The position numbers and the translations under genes were made by a program. Shown in pieces: positions 3,238-9,088 of a stretch of 34,844 nucleotides of DNA; the stretch's first letter is position 1; every line of letters begins with the position of its first letter. The notes under the pieces were generated by a model, which worked only from the letters and a program-made list of their open reading frames with translations, did not search any database and was not told the origin of the DNA. Source of the stretch: a virus (lineage: Duplodnaviria; Heunggongvirae; Uroviricota; Caudoviricetes); IMG/VR virus record IMGVR_UViG_2579778601_000008, positions 1-34,844 of that record; one strand, written 5' to 3'.

Positions 3238-3509
3238 GTATTCGTATTGAAATTGGCGAACGTTATGTCGTTACCAGTGACAGCTTTCAGTTTATTCTCC
3301 ACGAGAAAAAGAGAGCGGAAAGCGGTAAAAACGCCGGTCAGGAATGGCTGTCGGTGGTTGGTTATTACCCGAAATTAAGCCAGCTCGTTTCCGGCCTGAT
3401 GCATCACGATATTCTGACCGGAAGCGCAAAGTCTTTTGCTGATTTAAACGTGCAGGTTGAGCAACTCAGCAAGCGTTGTTCAGAGGCTTTTGGCTCATAT
3501 GGCCGTTAA
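3234..3509 (+). CDS. Small early protein (position of P2 orf83)
   Basis: 91-aa ORF; its stop overlaps the start of gene A. Confidence 0.6.
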   Translation: MSIRIEIGERYVVTSDSFQFILHEKKRAESGKNAGQEWLSVVGYYPKLSQLVSGLMHHDILTGSAKSFADLNVQVEQLSKRCSEAFGSYGR

Positions 3510-5775
3510 AGCCTCCGGGCGTTTTGTCCCTCCGTCAGCATTTGCCGCAGGCACCGGTAAGGCGTTTACCGGTGCTTATGCATGGAACGCGCCACGCGAG
3601 GCTGTCGGGCGCGAAAGACCCCTTACACGTGACGAGATGCGTCAGGTGCAAGGGGTTTTATCCACGATTAACCGCCTGCCTTACTTTTTGCGCTCGCTGT
3701 TTACTTCACGCTATGACTACATCCGGCGCAATAAAAGCCCGGTGCACGGGTTTTATTTTCTCACATCCACTTTTCAGCGTCGTTTATGGCCGCGCATTGA
3801 GCGTGTGAATCAGCGCCATGAAATGAACACCGACGCGTCGTTGCTGTTTCTGGCAGAGCGTGGCCATTATGCGCGTCTGCCGGGGATGAATGACAAGGAG
3901 CTGAAAAAGTTTGCCGCCCGTATCTCATCGCAGCTTTTCATGATGTATGAGGAACTCTGCGATGCCTGGGTGGATGCGCATGGCGAAAAAGAATCGCTGT
4001 TTACGGATGAGGCGCAGGCTCACCTCTATGGTCATGTTGCTGGTGCTGCACGTGCTTTCAATATTTCCCCTCTCTACTGGAAAAAATACCGTAAAGGGCA
4101 GATGACCACGAGGCAGGCATATTCTGCCATTGCCCGTCTGTTTAACGATGAGTGGTGGACCCATCAGCTTAAAGGCCAGCGTATGCGCTGGCATGAGGCG
4201 TTACTGATTGCTGTCGGGGAGGTCAATAAAGACCGTTCTCCTTATGCCAGTAAACATGCCATTCGTGATGTGCGTGCACGCCGCCAGGCAAATCTGGAAT
4301 TTCTTAAATCGTGTGATCTCGAAAACAGGGAAACCGGCGAGCGCATCGACCTTATCAGTAAGGTGATGGGCAGTATTTCTAATCCTGAAATTCGCCGGAT
4401 GGAGCTGATGAACACCATTGCCGGTATTGAGCGTTACGCCGCAGCAGAGGGTGATGTGGGGATGTTTATCACGCTGACCGCGCCGTCAAAGTATCACCCG
4501 ACACGTCAGGTCAGAAAAGGCGAAAGTAAAACCGTCCAGCTAAATCACGGCTGGAACGATGAGGCATTTAATCCAAAGGATGCGCAGCGTTATCTCTGCC
4601 GTATCTGGAGCCTGATGCGCACGGCATTCAAGGATAATGATTTACAGGTCTACGGTTTGCGTGTCGTCGAGCCACACCACGACGGAACGCCGCACTGGCA
4701 TATGATGCTTTTTTGTAATCCGCGCCAGCGTAACCAGATTATCGAAATCATGCGTCGCTATGCGCTCAAAGAGGATGGCGACGAAAGAGGAGCCGCGCGA
4801 AACCGTTTTCAGGCAAAACACCTTAACCGGGGCGGTGCTGCGGGGTATATCGCGAAATACATCTCAAAAAACATCGACGGCTATGCACTGGATGGTCAGC
4901 TCGATAACGATACCGGCAGGCCGCTGAAAGACACTGCTGCGGCTGTTACCGCATGGGCGTCAACGTGGCGCATCCCGCAATTTAAAACGGTTGGTCTGCC
5001 GACAATGGGGGCTTACCGTGAACTACGCAAATTGCCGCGCGGCGTCAGCATTGCTGATGAGTTTGACGAGCGCGTCGAGGCTGCACGCGCCGCCGCAGAC
5101 AGTGGTGATTTTGCGTTGTATATCAGCGCGCAGGGTGGGGCAAATGTCCCGCGCGATTGTCAGACTGTCAGGGTCGCCCGTAGCCCGTCGGATGACGTTA
5201 ACGAGTACGAGGAAGAGGTCGAGAGGGTGGTCGGCATTTACGCGCCGCATCTCGGCGCGCGTCATATTCATATCACCAGAACGACGGACTGGCGCATTGT
5301 GCCGAAAGTTCCGGTCGTTGAGCCTTTGACTTTAAAAAGCGGCATCGCCGCGCCTCGGAGTCCTGTCAATAACTGTGGAAAGCTCACCGGTGGTGATACT
5401 TCGTTACCGGCTCCCACACCTTCTGAGCACGCCGCAGCAGTGCTTAATCTGGTTGATGACGATGTTATCGAATGGAATGACCCGGAGGTCGTGAGGGCGC
5501 TCAGGGGCGCATTAAAACACGACCGGAGAACGCCAAACCGTCAGCAAAGAAACGGAAGCCCGTTAAAACCGCATGAAATTGCACCATCGGCCAGACTGAC
5601 CCGGTCGGAACGATTGCAAATTACCCGTATCCGCGTTGATCTCGCTCAGAACGGTATCAGGCCGCAACGATGGGAGCTTGAGGCGCTGGCGCGTGGCGCG
5701 ACCGTAAATTATGACGGGAAACCTTTCACTTATCAGGTCGCTGATGATTGGCCGGGATTTTTGTTACCCATTTGA
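3499..5775 (+). CDS. A: Replication initiation protein A (rolling-circle nicking endonuclease)
   Basis: Start chosen at internal ATG 3499 (MAVKASGRFVPP...), which matches the P2 gpA N-terminus as I recall it; ~758 aa; follows B and the small orfs. Confidence 0.9.
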   Translation: MAVKASGRFVPPSAFAAGTGKAFTGAYAWNAPREAVGRERPLTRDEMRQVQGVLSTINRLPYFLRSLFTSRYDYIRRNKSPVHGFYFLTSTFQRRLWPRIERVNQRHEMNTDASLLFLAERGHYARLPGMNDKELKKFAARISSQLFMMYEELCDAWVDAHGEKESLFTDEAQAHLYGHVAGAARAFNISPLYWKKYRKGQMTTRQAYSAIARLFNDEWWTHQLKGQRMRWHEALLIAVGEVNKDRSPYASKHAIRDVRARRQANLEFLKSCDLENRETGERIDLISKVMGSISNPEIRRMELMNTIAGIERYAAAEGDVGMFITLTAPSKYHPTRQVRKGESKTVQLNHGWNDEAFNPKDAQRYLCRIWSLMRTAFKDNDLQVYGLRVVEPHHDGTPHWHMMLFCNPRQRNQIIEIMRRYALKEDGDERGAARNRFQAKHLNRGGAAGYIAKYISKNIDGYALDGQLDNDTGRPLKDTAAAVTAWASTWRIPQFKTVGLPTMGAYRELRKLPRGVSIADEFDERVEAARAAADSGDFALYISAQGGANVPRDCQTVRVARSPSDDVNEYEEEVERVVGIYAPHLGARHIHITRTTDWRIVPKVPVVEPLTLKSGIAAPRSPVNNCGKLTGGDTSLPAPTPSEHAAAVLNLVDDDVIEWNDPEVVRALRGALKHDRRTPNRQQRNGSPLKPHEIAPSARLTRSERLQITRIRVDLAQNGIRPQRWELEALARGATVNYDGKPFTYQVADDWPGFLLPI

Positions 5776-5992
5776 GTAAAAATACAGCGTGATTTTATAT
5801 GTCTTTGAATGGATTATGCGAAGCACCTCTAAGGTAGATGAGGAGCAATAGCGTGTTGAATCAGAAGGCTAAATTGTATTGAATCGTTAGCATGTAATTG
5901 AAGGCAGCTATTTGATTCGAGTCATAAAAGAGCATCTATTTCGGTTAATAAAACCATTGCGAGTGACTTTATGTCGAAGCATAATTCATCTC

Positions 5993-6006
5993 GAGCGAAG
6001 TCTTGC
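5993..6006. repeat. 14-bp direct repeat GAGCGAAGTCTTGC, copy 1 (preceded by GAGTGACT at 5961)
   Basis: Exact 14-mer recurs at 6257-6270; both copies are preceded by GAGTGACT. Confidence 0.8.
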
Positions 6007-6035
6007 TAGTCTTTCATCGGATTGATGACGGGCGC

Positions 6036-6067
6036 AAAAAAACCACCCTGGCAGGTGGTTTTTTTGT
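6036..6067. terminator. Bidirectional intrinsic terminator
   Basis: GC-rich hairpin (AACCACC..GGTGGTT) flanked by A7 upstream and T7 downstream; lies downstream of gene A (+) and of the small minus-strand ORF. Confidence 0.7.
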
Positions 6068-6077
6068 TTGAAGCATA

Positions 6078-6191
6078 CTAAAGAAAAATACTTACATGGA
6101 TATTACTGACGTTTACTGACAAACCACTCGGACTACCATATGGATAGCCAAAGAGGGCCAGAACGAGAATGCAGTAATAGCACTTCTTCAT
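6078..6191 (-). CDS. Candidate small hydrophobic peptide (37 aa), possible type-I-toxin-like or small membrane protein
   Basis: My own translation, not in the supplied ORF track (below its length cutoff): MKKCYYCILVLALFGYPYGSPSGLSVNVSNIHVSIFL. AGGAGG lies 4 nt upstream of the ATG; the stop codon is directly followed by the intrinsic terminator. Confidence 0.35.
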   Translation of the reverse strand: MKKCYYCILVLALFGYPYGSPSGLSVNVSNIHVSIFL

Positions 6192-6256
6192 ATCGCCTCC
6201 TGTAAGCAGAGGGCAATTTCCGCCGATATATGCGCTTCTAAGGCGGAGTGACTATT

Positions 6257-6270
6257 GAGCGAAGTCTTGC
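6257..6270. repeat. 14-bp direct repeat GAGCGAAGTCTTGC, copy 2 (preceded by GAGTGACT at 6246)
   Basis: Exact match to 5993-6006; the two copies bracket the terminator and the 37-codon ORF. Confidence 0.8.
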
Positions 6271-6912
6271 CCTGAAATAATGCTCTGTTTAAACGCAAAG
6301 TGATCTGGCATATCACCGAACAGAGGACCTGAACAACACAACATATAGTATGTCGTTGTTTCTGGTTGCATTTTATGTTGTGTAATACTGGTTTTGCATC
6401 AAGGATGTTTGAGCTTTTTTTGATATAGCTCAAAGTAAAAAGCAGAGACTACGGATGATAAGGTCTTGAAAGCAATGTAAATTTTTTAAAGTTGTGAGTG
6501 GCTAGAAATGCACAGTTTCAATATGGCGGATTTAAACAAGTAATTAAAAATAGCGACATAAATTCCAATAAAATCATTAAGTTGCGTTTTCTGTGGAAAC
6601 TTCGGTGACTCTGAAATTTTCTTTTAGTGTCGCTGAGGTTTAACAACGCGCTGCGCAAGTAGTTAGTGTTTTTTTAACTCAATATTCTGATTTATAAGGT
6701 TTTTTATAAATCGTGGACTGGTTGCGCGTATTCATCTCGTGTTATCAGCAAAGATAAGCTCTATATGCAGAACGGAATGCATATATGATGTCGAAAATGT
6801 TATGGGAAAACGTGGATTAGTGTTATAGTAATGGCTGAAAAACAGCCTTGACATAAAATAACAACTGTGATATGGCTGTGCATACTTAACTTTTTTAACG
6901 TAGGAGGCAACC

Positions 6913-7398
6913 ATGAGCTATGCAGCTAAAAAACTGCTTGACCGCTATTGGGATCGCCGACTACCTGTCGATCCGTTTAAGCTTGCTAAAGCGTGGGGTG
7001 CTCGTGTTGAAGCACTTGAGGAATCGGCTTATAACAACGATGGGTTAAGCGGTCTGGCTGTCATCAAAAAGGGTGTCCATAGGATTTATTTTGATTCTAG
7101 TGAACATTCTAATCGTCAACGTTTTACTGTTGCACACGAGTTAGGTCATCATGTGCTGGGGCATACCCAGGACGGAGAGTACCATCGGGATAATGTCGGG
7201 AATTATTCAACAGGTGCTCGTGATTACCGTGAGGTTGAAGCAAACAAGTTTGCTGCTGAGTTGTTAATGCCTGAGTCTGCTATACGTCAATTGGTATCCA
7301 GAGAAGGTATTGATAGCACTTTGAGATTAGCAAGCATCTTTAATGTATCAGAAGCCGCTATGCATTGGCGCTTAAAGAGCTTAGGAATGGCTTATTAA
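6913..7398 (+). CDS. ImmA/IrrE-family (DUF955-like) zinc metallopeptidase, no attached HTH domain
   Basis: 161-aa ORF with HEXXH motif in ...FTVAHELGHHVLGH...; AGGAGG 6 nt upstream of the ATG; AT-rich upstream region with TTGACA at 6848. Confidence 0.75.
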   Translation: MSYAAKKLLDRYWDRRLPVDPFKLAKAWGARVEALEESAYNNDGLSGLAVIKKGVHRIYFDSSEHSNRQRFTVAHELGHHVLGHTQDGEYHRDNVGNYSTGARDYREVEANKFAAELLMPESAIRQLVSREGIDSTLRLASIFNVSEAAMHWRLKSLGMAY

Positions 7399-7425
7399 TT
7401 AGCCTTTAACTTTTAACCTGTTTAA

Positions 7426-7462
7426 AATCACCTTTACGTTTGTACATGTAAGGGTGATTTTT
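7426..7462 (+). terminator. Hairpin plus T-tract between the peptidase and membrane-protein genes (possible attenuator or partial terminator)
   Basis: Inverted repeat AAATCACCTTT...AAGGGTGATTT followed by TTTTTT running into the ATG at 7465. Confidence 0.4.
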
Positions 7463-7464
7463 TT

Positions 7465-8064
7465 ATGGCTGATATTGATTTATCTGGACAGTCCCCAGAG
7501 CAAGGAACCACTCCTAAGGGCGATTCAGATCCTGATATCCTTATAAGGCGAGATAGACGGGATGGTATAGAGCGTAGAAGTATGCGATTAGTGCTCTCTG
7601 CCGTTGTGCTTTGTTTTGCTTGTACATTTCTATGGCAGGGGCTTAACTTTGCTTTGGCTGTTGGAAATGGCTTGCTGGAAGCGAAAAGCAGTATTGCCGC
7701 AGCGATAACACAAAAAGTAGATACACAAACTTGTGTTTCAGCAGAAAAATGTTCTGCTTTATCTTCGGATCCGAAGATGGCTGATGAGAGGATAACACCA
7801 TCTTCAGACACTAATAAAGTTAGAAAATCTATTTCTGGTTTATCCACCGATTGGTTATCGGCCAGTTCTCTAATAGCTATTGTTGCATTCATCCTTGGTG
7901 TGGGTTTAACTTTGCTTTTGACTCTTCTTAAATCAGCATTTCAACACCCGACAGATAAAGACTTTAGAACAAAGTCGACATCTAATACTATTGAGTTGGC
8001 CACGCCAATCAGTGAATTAATAATTGGTGTTCTGAATATAATTAAAGACAAACTATCTAAGTAA
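7465..8064 (+). CDS. Predicted two-TM membrane protein of unknown function
   Basis: 199-aa ORF; charged N-terminus (RRDRRDGIERR); hydrophobic segments LVLSAVVLCFACTFLWQGLNFALAV and SLIAIVAFILGVGLTLLLTLL; two Cys in the intervening loop; amphipathic C-terminus; co-oriented with the peptidase gene. Confidence 0.6.
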   Translation: MADIDLSGQSPEQGTTPKGDSDPDILIRRDRRDGIERRSMRLVLSAVVLCFACTFLWQGLNFALAVGNGLLEAKSSIAAAITQKVDTQTCVSAEKCSALSSDPKMADERITPSSDTNKVRKSISGLSTDWLSASSLIAIVAFILGVGLTLLLTLLKSAFQHPTDKDFRTKSTSNTIELATPISELIIGVLNIIKDKLSK

Positions 8065-8146
8065 AGCATTAGTTGTGATTTTTTATTGGTTTTAGTGATA
8101 ATACATCTCCAGTACTTATTGTTACTGGAGAGTATTTTTAGTCGTT

Positions 8147-9088
8147 TTATATTTTTAATGTTAGTGAATGATATTCACGAGAGTTCACGTTCGATGTGAT
8201 GTAATCGGGGGCGTTAACACCAAGAATCGCAACGAGTAATCGGCAAATTAAAGCCTGCATTTGTTGTAATATGTCATCTCCATATTGATAATTGTTAATA
8301 GTGGTAAAGCCAAGTGGTTGACCATGAAACATAGCTTCATGAAAGTTTTCATTGCGGATGTTTGTAATGTTTTTTTTGCCTGTAACCCATGATGGTCGTG
8401 GTATTCCATAAGTTTTGCAGATCCACTTCAAGCGCCTGGAGTGATTTAGAGTCTTTTCTGTACACTTGTTCTTTTCTGCCCATGTTAAAGCAAAGCAACT
8501 ATCCAGTGCCATATAAAGATACTGGAATTTTTCGAAGCTAAGGTATTGTGGGTTTTGGGATAAAAATAGTGCATGCACTATTGCTGCTATATTTATTGGT
8601 GCGTGTTTGGTTTTTGTCTCGCTAGACATGTATTTGAGTGCTAATTCTATAACCTCTTTTTCAGAGCACTTGACCAGAATAAAGTCAGTTAATTTGCTGG
8701 GTTTTATTGGGGTTGCGTCTAAAAAACCGGCATCAGTAGTTGTTAATCTTATCCCTTTGAAAAAAGACAGACACCACACAGCAAAATTGAGAGTTTCTAG
8801 TGAAGATGTATTTTTTAATTTTAGTGAGTGTGTTTTGGGTAAGCCAAATACTCGTTGGCTAAAAGGCATTGTGGATATGCCTCCATTGAGGTTATATACT
8901 TCTTGGTTTCCTGGGTATATCCAACCGTTAATAACATTTCTGTGATTGTTTATAAGATTTGTTTTTTCCGCTAGACCGGGTAAAGTAAGTAAAGAAAAAT
9001 CATCAGTTTCAACGTTAACTTCTACTGGATAGTATCCAAACTCAGCTTCAATATCATTGGATTGCTGTTCGTCAACTTTACCTTGCAT
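8147..9088 (-). CDS. Hypothetical 313-aa protein with RNxxxH motif (possible HEPN-type nuclease)
   Basis: Long ORF in a markedly AT-rich stretch, convergent with the two upstream genes; GGAG 6 nt upstream of ATG; motif RNENFH near residue 245; no P-loop or HEXXH seen. Confidence 0.65.
   Translation of the reverse strand: MQGKVDEQQSNDIEAEFGYYPVEVNVETDDFSLLTLPGLAEKTNLINNHRNVINGWIYPGNQEVYNLNGGISTMPFSQRVFGLPKTHSLKLKNTSSLETLNFAVWCLSFFKGIRLTTTDAGFLDATPIKPSKLTDFILVKCSEKEVIELALKYMSSETKTKHAPINIAAIVHALFLSQNPQYLSFEKFQYLYMALDSCFALTWAEKNKCTEKTLNHSRRLKWICKTYGIPRPSWVTGKKNITNIRNENFHEAMFHGQPLGFTTINNYQYGDDILQQMQALICRLLVAILGVNAPDYITSNVNSREYHSLTLKI

Follow-up and report, generated by a model that had tools for sequence, protein, structure and literature searches.

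What keeps two identical 14-nt words in the same orientation, a few hundred base pairs apart, just behind the replication gene of a prophage? The window analyzed here is a stretch of 34,844 nucleotides (IMG/VR record IMGVR_UViG_2579778601_000008), a P2-like (Peduovirus) prophage of Escherichia coli, in which GAGCGAAGTCTTGC occurs at 5993-6006 (copy 1) and again at 6257-6270 (copy 2), 264 bp from start to start. Our analysis suggests that the two copies are the matching halves of an antisense pair in an unannotated type I toxin-antitoxin (TA)-like module, made of a predicted small RNA (sRNA) and the convergent mRNA of a small peptide. We consider this interpretation likely, and the more limited statement, that the repeat encodes a pairing site between an sRNA and an mRNA, is very probable from the comparison of related sequences. 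The two RNAs would be mutually complementary because one short sequence is read in opposite directions by two convergent transcripts.

The repeat itself is real. The preliminary description of this DNA had reported two copies of GAGCGAAGTCTTGC 264 bp apart, and these are the only matches in the whole window even when up to two mismatches are allowed. It had also noted that the 8-mer GAGTGACT precedes each copy, which is true in the window (5961-5968 and 6246-6253, with gaps of 24 nt to copy 1 and 3 nt to copy 2), and that the repeats flank a terminator and a 37-codon open reading frame (ORF); the terminator arms (6035-6047 and 6054-6066) and the ORF (6078-6191) do lie between the copies. By our own estimate ~0.003 exact 14-nt direct repeats are expected per 1.2-kb region, and chance is excluded for the 14-mer. 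Every complete homologue that we fetched has exactly two copies on the same strand, 263-270 nt apart. GAGTGACT was considered as a second repeat, analogous to the repeat DRb of the par locus of plasmid pAD1, and was rejected. Its two sites are not identical in any other lineage, reading GAGTGACC and GAGTTACT in E24377A, GGGTAACC and GAATGACT in the EC12 group, and GGGTCTAT and GAACGACT on plasmids. Since the identity between the sites is lost in the relatives and the first site falls in the spacer of the predicted sRNA promoter, the recurrence of GAGTGACT in the window is probably a coincidence.

The two copies of the 14-mer change together. Distant subfamilies were reached through the terminator that the two transcripts would share, which gave 13 distinct combinations of a seed (copy 1) and a target (copy 2). 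Both copies read TGAGCAAAGCCTTACC in the Salmonella/Citrobacter subfamily (loci L043, L044, L051 and L067), TGAGCGAAGTCTTGCC in the Klebsiella plasmids, and ...CTTGTCAC in L075 and L089. Three substitutions separate the Salmonella/Citrobacter type from the Klebsiella type, and each of them is mirrored in both copies. At positions 3-16 every one of the 182 cells of the 13 combinations pairs, with double changes at four positions, against 26-45% of the cells in slid-register controls. The covariation score is 0.179 versus 0.122 for shuffled data, and none of 500 shuffles reaches it. There are eight one-sided differences, at four positions, and all of them are wobble-compatible (U:G or G:U in the sRNA:mRNA duplex), with none in the incompatible orientation: copy 1 has T where copy 2 has C at three positions (the window, the EC12 group, L046, L049 and L071), and G where copy 2 has A at one position (L087). 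The 5' end of the sRNA would be perfectly complementary to the target because copy 2 is read in the opposite direction. The seed-target duplex (6272..6256) has a predicted energy of -29.1 kcal/mol versus -14.8 +/- 2.3 for shuffled seeds (0 of 1000 reach it), and the best site for the seed in the whole window, its own antisense strand aside, is this target in the mRNA leader. The predicted RNA-pairing architecture is thus well supported by comparative evidence.

Copy 1 is positioned as the 5' end of an RNA. A promoter scan gave a predicted sigma-70 promoter on the plus strand at 5957-5985 (9 of 12 matches), with the -35 hexamer TTGCGA (5957-5962), a 17-bp spacer that contains the first GAGTGACT, and the -10 hexamer CATAAT (5980-5985). 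TTGCG and GCATAATT are invariant in all subfamilies and the spacer diverges. The transcription start site (TSS) was placed from the position of the promoter: a start 7-8 nt past the -10 hexamer corresponds to G5993, where copy 1 begins. A candidate antitoxin sRNA of ~75 nt would extend from this base to 6068, with copy 1 as its 5'-terminal seed at 5993-6006 on the plus strand (GAGCGAAGUCUUGC, plus a U:G pair at 6007), a middle stem-loop (~6009-6033), and a terminator hairpin with a U tail (6066-6068), as indicated by folding and by RNAalifold. Its predicted fold has -31.9 kcal/mol (z = -4.2), and six pairs of the middle stem show compensatory changes among nine variants in RNAalifold. The G-U pairs of this stem are valid on the plus strand only and become C-A mismatches on the other strand; the conserved structure at 6009-6033 would belong to a plus-strand RNA because for minus-strand transcripts the region lies beyond the terminator. 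That terminator, predicted to be intrinsic and bidirectional and to serve both convergent transcripts, is CAAAAAAACCACC-CTGGCA-GGTGGTTTTTTTG at 6035-6066, with 13-nt arms that are 100% complementary, and it shows little or no variation in any subfamily. A simple terminator scan missed it because the A/U runs lengthen the stem. The 3' hairpins of the two transcripts would be fully complementary because both end at one palindromic terminator. Rfam gave no family at gathering score in this region of the window: the best matches, RNAI, Phe_leader and P9, are far below their thresholds and are driven by the terminator hairpin, and none of them was accepted as the identity of the RNA.

Facing the sRNA gene, the 37-codon ORF MKKCYYCILVLALFGYPYGSPSGLSVNVSNIHVSIFL (6078..6191, minus strand) is the candidate toxin gene, with a Shine-Dalgarno sequence (SD) GGAGG at 6200-6196 and its ATG at 6191-6189. 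Its length stays at 37 or 39 codons in 19 distinct peptide variants; although up to 49 of the 114 nt differ, no variant has a frameshift or a premature stop, and much of the codon variation is synonymous. The N-terminus of the peptide is basic, residues 4-14 form a hydrophobic core, the net charge is +2 without any acidic residue, and the grand average of hydropathy is 0.86; an invariant G-x-x-x-G turn (GS.SG, in the context GYPxGSxSG) is followed by an uncharged polar tail with alternating residues. Hence the small hydrophobic peptide gene of fewer than 60 aa that is characteristic of type I TA systems is present (37 codons, 19 coding variants), and the complementary sRNA gene next to it is present as a computational prediction, with a promoter, a terminator, a fold and 14-18 nt of complementarity.

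This peptide is easily missed by annotation. Databases label it 'hypothetical', leave it uncalled, or fuse it to spurious upstream frames. A padded query of the peptide returned two protein clusters only, and an exhaustive phmmer search of 1.84 billion representatives gave eight matches with E <= 0.001, among them six family members or read-through ORFs. In GTDB genomes a peptide pattern picked up one real locus (L042, in Citrobacter) and one chance match, and a literature search for the repeat on either strand and for the peptide core found nothing relevant. Gene callers also produce 'hypothetical proteins' of 81-149 aa by reading through the leader into the 37-codon ORF (6188-6433 and 6252-6371 on the minus strand of the window; P0002, P0004, P0007 and P0016); for example, in the EC12 group AAG replaces the TAG that the window has at 6255-6253. 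These long proteins are annotation artefacts, which mask the real small ORF and distort the clustering of proteins.

The mRNA of the peptide would start from a minus-strand promoter at 6370-6398, predicted from the alignments, with the -35 hexamer TGCAAA (6398..6393), a 17-bp spacer and the -10 hexamer TAAAAT (6375..6370). Both hexamers are kept in all diverged subfamilies aligned; the promoter scan did not flag this promoter because its -35 hexamer is weak. A regular expression that requires a spacing of 16-18 bp was satisfied by 27 leader variants, and the full-length module L051 did not match it. The TSS was placed at ~6363, which gives a leader of ~170 nt and an mRNA of ~330 nt. We found no LexA box (CTGT-N8-ACAG, with at most one mismatch) in 6340-6480, and control by LexA and the SOS response was rejected for that reason.

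The leader is predicted to be structured (z = -3.0), and copy 2 lies in an open part of it. Folding places a hairpin at the 5' end of the mRNA (6331-6360, minus strand; AACAACGACAUA...UAUGUUGUGUUGUU), in place of which the Salmonella subfamily has a different hairpin (AGCCCCUAcaggUAGGGGCU). Downstream RNAalifold, applied to 13 diverse leaders, predicts a two-tier hairpin, SL-A (6283-6325, minus strand; outer stem CUCUGUU/AACAGAG, inner stem GGUGAU/AUCACU), and a stem-loop, SL-B (6219-6247, minus strand; UCCGCC ... GGCGGA). There are 23 predicted pairs, and the 10 of them with compensatory changes are all in SL-A and SL-B, mostly in SL-A. The inner stem of SL-A has a G-U intermediate in Enterobacter (L012) and a G-C compensation in Citrobacter (L042), which are legal on the minus strand only, and in SL-B CCGCC/GGCGG becomes CCACC/GGUGG in the EC12 group. 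Between SL-A and SL-B, in a stretch modelled as single-stranded, lies copy 2 as the predicted target site GCAAGACUUCGCUC (6257-6270, minus strand), ~95-105 nt downstream of the predicted TSS and ~57 nt upstream of the SD. SL-B separates it from the SD, which is ~80% paired in a local hairpin in the models. Two other arrangements were tried and rejected. The sRNA might act as a structural toggle that frees an anti-SD (UUGCCCUCUG) to close the SD, and blocking the target left the pairing of the SD unchanged; the 5' arm CCUCUG of SL-A might be a long-range anti-SD, and it is not conserved in the Salmonella subfamily and is lost from the consensus when diverse leaders are included.

The whole module, namely the sRNA gene, the bidirectional terminator, the peptide ORF, the structured leader, its promoter and a block upstream of that promoter, covers ~570 bp (about 5912-6480) in alignments with prophage variants of E. 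coli and with Klebsiella/Enterobacter and Salmonella/Citrobacter plasmids. Relatives that are ~75% identical overall have invariant repeat copies, promoter hexamer pairs, terminator and start codon. In the window the module is the first cargo element 3' of the ORF at 3457-5775, whose 772-aa product is the replication protein gpA (Pfam Phage_GPA, E = 6e-123); from ~9515 onward the minus strand carries the portal and terminase genes. The interval between gpA and gpQ of P2-like phages is a documented hotspot for anti-phage cargo (PMC9122126), in which the cargo is swapped rapidly (PMC9122126, PMC13586616). P2, Wphi, L-413C and dozens of other P2-like phages are ~91-96% identical to the window until ~5759, just inside the end of gene A, and then diverge, so everything from ~5759 to ~9100 is hotspot cargo.

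The module is widespread. By BLAST it is present in 163 of 5426 complete E. coli genomes (~3%), where RefSeq annotates no feature at its place, and in three phage records. In the E. coli loci inspected it always sits in the gpA-gpQ hotspot after gpA, followed directly by the portal gene without other cargo in EC12 and FDAARGOS_1250, by an AAA ATPase in E. coli W and E24377A, and by an M78 peptidase gene in the window, strain 439 and the Salmonella phage MET_P1_103_31. It is also carried, at ~75% identity, by 409 PLSDB plasmids, 392 of them from Klebsiella and 347 of them conjugative, with Salmonella, Enterobacter and Citrobacter as further hosts; there the surroundings are insertion sequence (IS) elements and unrelated genes. 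Such a distribution over hotspot prophages and conjugative plasmids is typical of addiction or defence modules. Pattern matches at L048/L077, L066 and L073 in a metagenome scan proved to be unrelated terminators, and small ColE1-type plasmids, which match through an RNAI-like hairpin only, were likewise not counted as members.

A few loci deserve separate mention. A secretin (PF00263) gene cluster lies ~200-600 bp from the module in L087 (GCA_001654985.1) and in the metagenomic L089, which means that the module is not limited to P2 hotspots and IncF plasmids. The Klebsiella virulence/KPC hybrid plasmid pHvKP51-Vir-P15 (L001) has a gene annotated as a DinQ type I toxin at 4466-4603, between IS elements and ~1 kb from the module, and plasmids of this kind seem to combine several type I systems. 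The module occurs twice, ~2.9 kb apart on the metagenome contig Ga0268256_1001162 (L071), at 3354-3648 and 6276-6569; their seeds differ slightly, CGAGCGAAGTCTTGCC with an AAGCCTT target and TGAGCGAAGTCTTGTC with a CTTGCC target, and cross-talk between these paralogues is possible. In the P2-like prophage of E. coli MFDS1001074 (L008) only a decayed sRNA promoter region is left at 1470-1575 (TTGTGA...TATAAC...GTGAGCCAAGT). Its homology to the window stops inside repeat copy 1 and gives way to unrelated cargo; this one decayed locus is what remains of a module that was replaced.

Could the repeats have arisen in other ways? The preliminary description had suggested a recombination scar or the boundary of a swappable cassette, the ends of a miniature insertion, or a duplicated regulatory or sRNA element. 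A boundary would suit the position of the region, which comes first after gene A in a hotspot of rapid swapping (PMC9122126, PMC13586616), and would suit L008, whose homology ends inside copy 1. However, the homology among the phage, plasmid and Salmonella/Citrobacter versions (~5912-6480) passes copy 1 by ~80 bp on the left and copy 2 by ~210 bp on the right, the break from the P2 type is at ~5759, and differing cargos join right of ~6480. The cargo swaps that the preliminary description had proposed to look for at the repeats in related prophages are found right of ~6480, and L008 is the one hint to the contrary. Neither an excision between the repeats nor an 'empty site' with one copy occurs in any homologue, and the homology does not end at the repeats as terminal or target-site repeats of an insertion would require. 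Because two copies are present in every complete homologue and the homology continues past both, the scar, the cassette boundary and the insertion ends are practically ruled out. Of the two observations that the preliminary description had named as speaking against its view, the absence of the repeat from related cargo boundaries was confirmed, and a single copy in homologues was not, as both copies are kept and co-vary. Its third suggestion comes close as to the sRNA and fails for the duplication, since one sequence is read oppositely by two transcripts, and the folding of both strands that it advised did bring out structure in the sRNA (z = -4.2) and in the leader (z = -3.0). Another possibility is that the copies are twin DNA operators of one sequence-specific host or phage regulator that controls both promoters; one shared protein would also explain why many relatives keep 13 nt of both copies unchanged and why changes affect the two together. 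Yet eight of the eight one-sided differences keep the RNA pair (U:G or G:U), which DNA binding does not predict, and this wobble asymmetry favours RNA pairing over operators. In addition, copy 1 begins where transcription from a conserved promoter is predicted to start, ahead of a conserved RNA structure and a terminator, and copy 2 is off the toxin-side promoter, ~95-105 nt past the predicted TSS. The module encodes no regulator, has no LexA box and occurs in backgrounds as unrelated as phage and IncF plasmids, and we regard the operators as very unlikely.

Several points weigh against a type I TA-like module. The RNAs and the translation of the peptide are predictions from sequence, and the toxicity and the repression are argued by analogy. 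Few lineages contribute the co-varying changes, which may go back to 4-6 independent events, so that the covariation statistics are modest, and in the E24377A lineage copy 2 has lost the first base match without a compensating change. The toxin-side -35 hexamer matches at three of six positions. Partition-function folding of the 13 leaders gave an SD that is ~80% paired whether the target was blocked or free. The hydrophobic stretch of the peptide has ~13-15 residues only and the C-terminal half is polar and beta-like without a charged tail, unlike most type I toxins; no Pfam, NCBIfam, PHROG or PADLOC model matches the peptide (eight variants, E <= 10 for Pfam and NCBIfam), and its identity with a known protein family was rejected on these grounds. 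The last points would also suit a small membrane protein that is under antisense-RNA control and not toxic, with a role such as the modulation of a host membrane protein, superinfection exclusion or signalling. In that case the RNA pairing would be real and the module would serve neither addiction nor abortive infection. Its short hydrophobic core, the Gly/Pro/Ser turn (GYPxGSxSG) and the uncharged polar tail are atypical of toxins, no toxin family matches it, and TimP is a precedent of a signal-like small protein with an sRNA repressor that is tolerable at native levels (PMC7667032). On the other hand, an elaborate leader, a sequestered SD, a dedicated sRNA of constitutive appearance and an occurrence on conjugative plasmids as well as in a hotspot of phage defence are hallmarks of tightly silenced toxic genes, and machinery of this kind is rare for benign small proteins. 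A non-toxic role is therefore unlikely in our opinion, though less so than the operators.

If the module is of the type I kind, as we prefer, it could work as follows. The plus-strand promoter would yield the ~75-nt sRNA, whose first 14-18 nt are copy 1, and the minus-strand promoter the ~330-nt mRNA, with its ~170-nt structured leader, a strong SD and the ORF of the hydrophobic cationic peptide. By analogy with known systems the peptide would be a membrane toxin. With the SD held in a local hairpin, the ribosome may load on the open stretch upstream, a standby site as in tisB and zorO, and such loading would be needed for translation because the SD is locked. The sRNA would cover the open stretch and/or prompt cleavage by RNase III, and the toxin would stay off as long as the element is present. 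The geometry would suit a standby site, with the target in the open stretch between SL-A and SL-B and the SD ~80% paired, and modelled occupancy of the target had no effect on the SD; the repression step is drawn from analogy because blocking the target in the model left the accessibility of the SD unchanged. The complementary terminator loops may make a first kissing contact, as in par of pAD1. The sRNA loop CUGG fits the YUNR U-turn motif, a weak indication. When the element is lost, or when an infecting phage shuts off transcription, the shorter-lived sRNA would decay and the toxin would be made. For plasmids the outcome might be post-segregational killing; for prophages with the module in the P2 hotspot it might be addiction or abortive infection. 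During lytic growth of P2 the gpA transcript would read into the terminator and might thus carry the antitoxin sequence in its 3' untranslated region (UTR).

We also speculate on a wider picture, which is tentative and rather doubtful as a whole. The module could be an unrecognised enterobacterial type I TA family, the first in Gram-negative bacteria with the convergent, shared-terminator and direct-repeat layout of par(pAD1). On the IncF resistance and virulence plasmids of Klebsiella it could act in addiction, and at the entrance of the P2 gpA-gpQ defence hotspot it could act as a guard, with abortive infection triggered by RNA; the variants GAGCGAAGUCUUGCC and GAGCAAAGCCUUACC would define mutually orthogonal specificity groups. 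As protein-based surveys cannot detect the module, it might even provide a conserved homology arm for the exchange of hotspot cargo between phages and plasmids. If our main reading, a type I TA-like module, is right, annotation has overlooked a selfish or defensive module that is widespread, and the short list of enterobacterial type I systems would gain a new toxin family and a new antitoxin RNA. The layout of par(pAD1), so far described in Gram-positives, would then also exist in Gram-negative bacteria, and the natural variants of seed and target would offer a ready test of RNA specificity. It would further show what protein-centred surveys miss, both in the P2 defence hotspot and among the maintenance functions of clinically important Klebsiella plasmids.

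Some features around the module were noted as well. The ~80-bp block upstream of the toxin-side promoter (6403-6480) is kept in every subfamily in the alignment, including the distant Salmonella/Citrobacter one, with TTTGCAT, ATGTTT, TTGA and CAA.GTAAAAA, and most subfamilies also keep AATGTAAATT. No conserved ORF or LexA box lies in the block, and it could possibly be an A-tract or UP-like element, a regulator site or a third transcript. In the AT-rich spacer behind it an imperfect long hairpin is found at 6582-6653 (plus strand), whose Rfam match to mir-644 (27 bits versus a gathering threshold of 96, E = 0.002) is almost certainly due to chance. The cargo after the module (6913-9088) has three genes, with products of 161 aa, 199 aa (7465-8064, plus strand) and 313 aa (8147-9088, minus strand). 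The 161-aa protein is an M78/ImmA-IrrE peptidase that matches the PADLOC capP model (E = 1e-30), and the other two have no Pfam or PADLOC match. This cargo could be an uncharacterised defence system regulated by CapP; we saw no CapH-like helix-turn-helix partner in the spacer at 6480-6912. The gene that follows the module in an Enterobacter plasmid also encodes 161 aa and was considered as kin of the M78 gene of the window, and it is unrelated.

How does the module compare with known systems? The timP/timR pair (ryfA/ryfB) of Salmonella and E. coli resembles it in having a small signal-like peptide behind a long leader and repression by an sRNA. TimP has 38 aa with a signal-like N-terminal hydrophobic segment in place of a full transmembrane helix of the classic kind, its ORF starts at +145, and its sRNA pairs in the leader (PMC7667032). 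However, timR is divergent and its locus belongs to the chromosomal core, in contrast to the convergent sRNA gene and the mobile module found here, and the Rfam model RyfA (RF00126) had no match at E <= 10 on either strand of 5500-7000. The hok/sok system of plasmid R1, with its chromosomal and prophage homologues, is comparable as an enterobacterial plasmid module for post-segregational killing, with a structured, slowly activated toxin mRNA and an unstable antisense RNA, and it is known to exclude phage T4. It differs in that Sok overlaps the hok/mok leader in cis, whereas the sRNA here overlaps the terminator only, and in that Hok has ~50 aa and belongs to Pfam Hok_Gef, whereas the module has neither a Hok_Gef match nor a mok-like coupling ORF.

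The type I systems tisB/istR-1 and zorO/orzO of E. coli, together with shoB/ohsC and dinQ/agrB, are similar in the place of the target. These are enterobacterial, their toxins are small hydrophobic peptides, and the 5' end of a trans-acting sRNA pairs far upstream of a sequestered ribosome-binding site in a long structured 5' UTR, as proposed here. Their sRNA genes are divergent or adjacent and do not share a terminator with the toxin gene. TisB and DinQ are controlled by LexA, for which there is no box here, and the peptide has no sequence similarity to the TisB/DinQ family (NCBIfam and Pfam negative), with the standby mechanism taken over by analogy. Modules of this class are still being found: DqlB/agrB on pOXA-48 was unannotated until recently (PMC12365149).

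The gene layout itself is that of par(pAD1) of the Enterococcus faecalis plasmid pAD1, in which RNA I is the Fst mRNA and RNA II the antitoxin, and of the par-like loci of Gram-positives, which are plasmid- or phage-borne. The par locus has convergent promoters, a bidirectional terminator, direct repeats that are transcribed in opposite directions and an SD that is sequestered intramolecularly (PMC7472228). Convergent promoters, predicted and conserved, and a shared bidirectional terminator were found in our module too. The differences are that it has one conserved repeat, versus two (DRa and DRb) in par; that the repeat lies ~57 nt upstream of the SD, versus over the translation initiation region; that the predicted sRNA has ~75 nt, versus ~40; and that the hosts are Gram-negative Enterobacteriaceae. 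The peptide also lacks the Fst/Ldr signature of a transmembrane helix, a conserved Trp and a charged C-terminus, as its C-terminal half is uncharged and none of the eight variants has a Pfam or NCBIfam match at E <= 10. With the gene layout of par(pAD1) and a target site placed upstream as in TisB/Zor, the module most likely represents a new family of type I TA-like modules, that is, a known kind in a new form.

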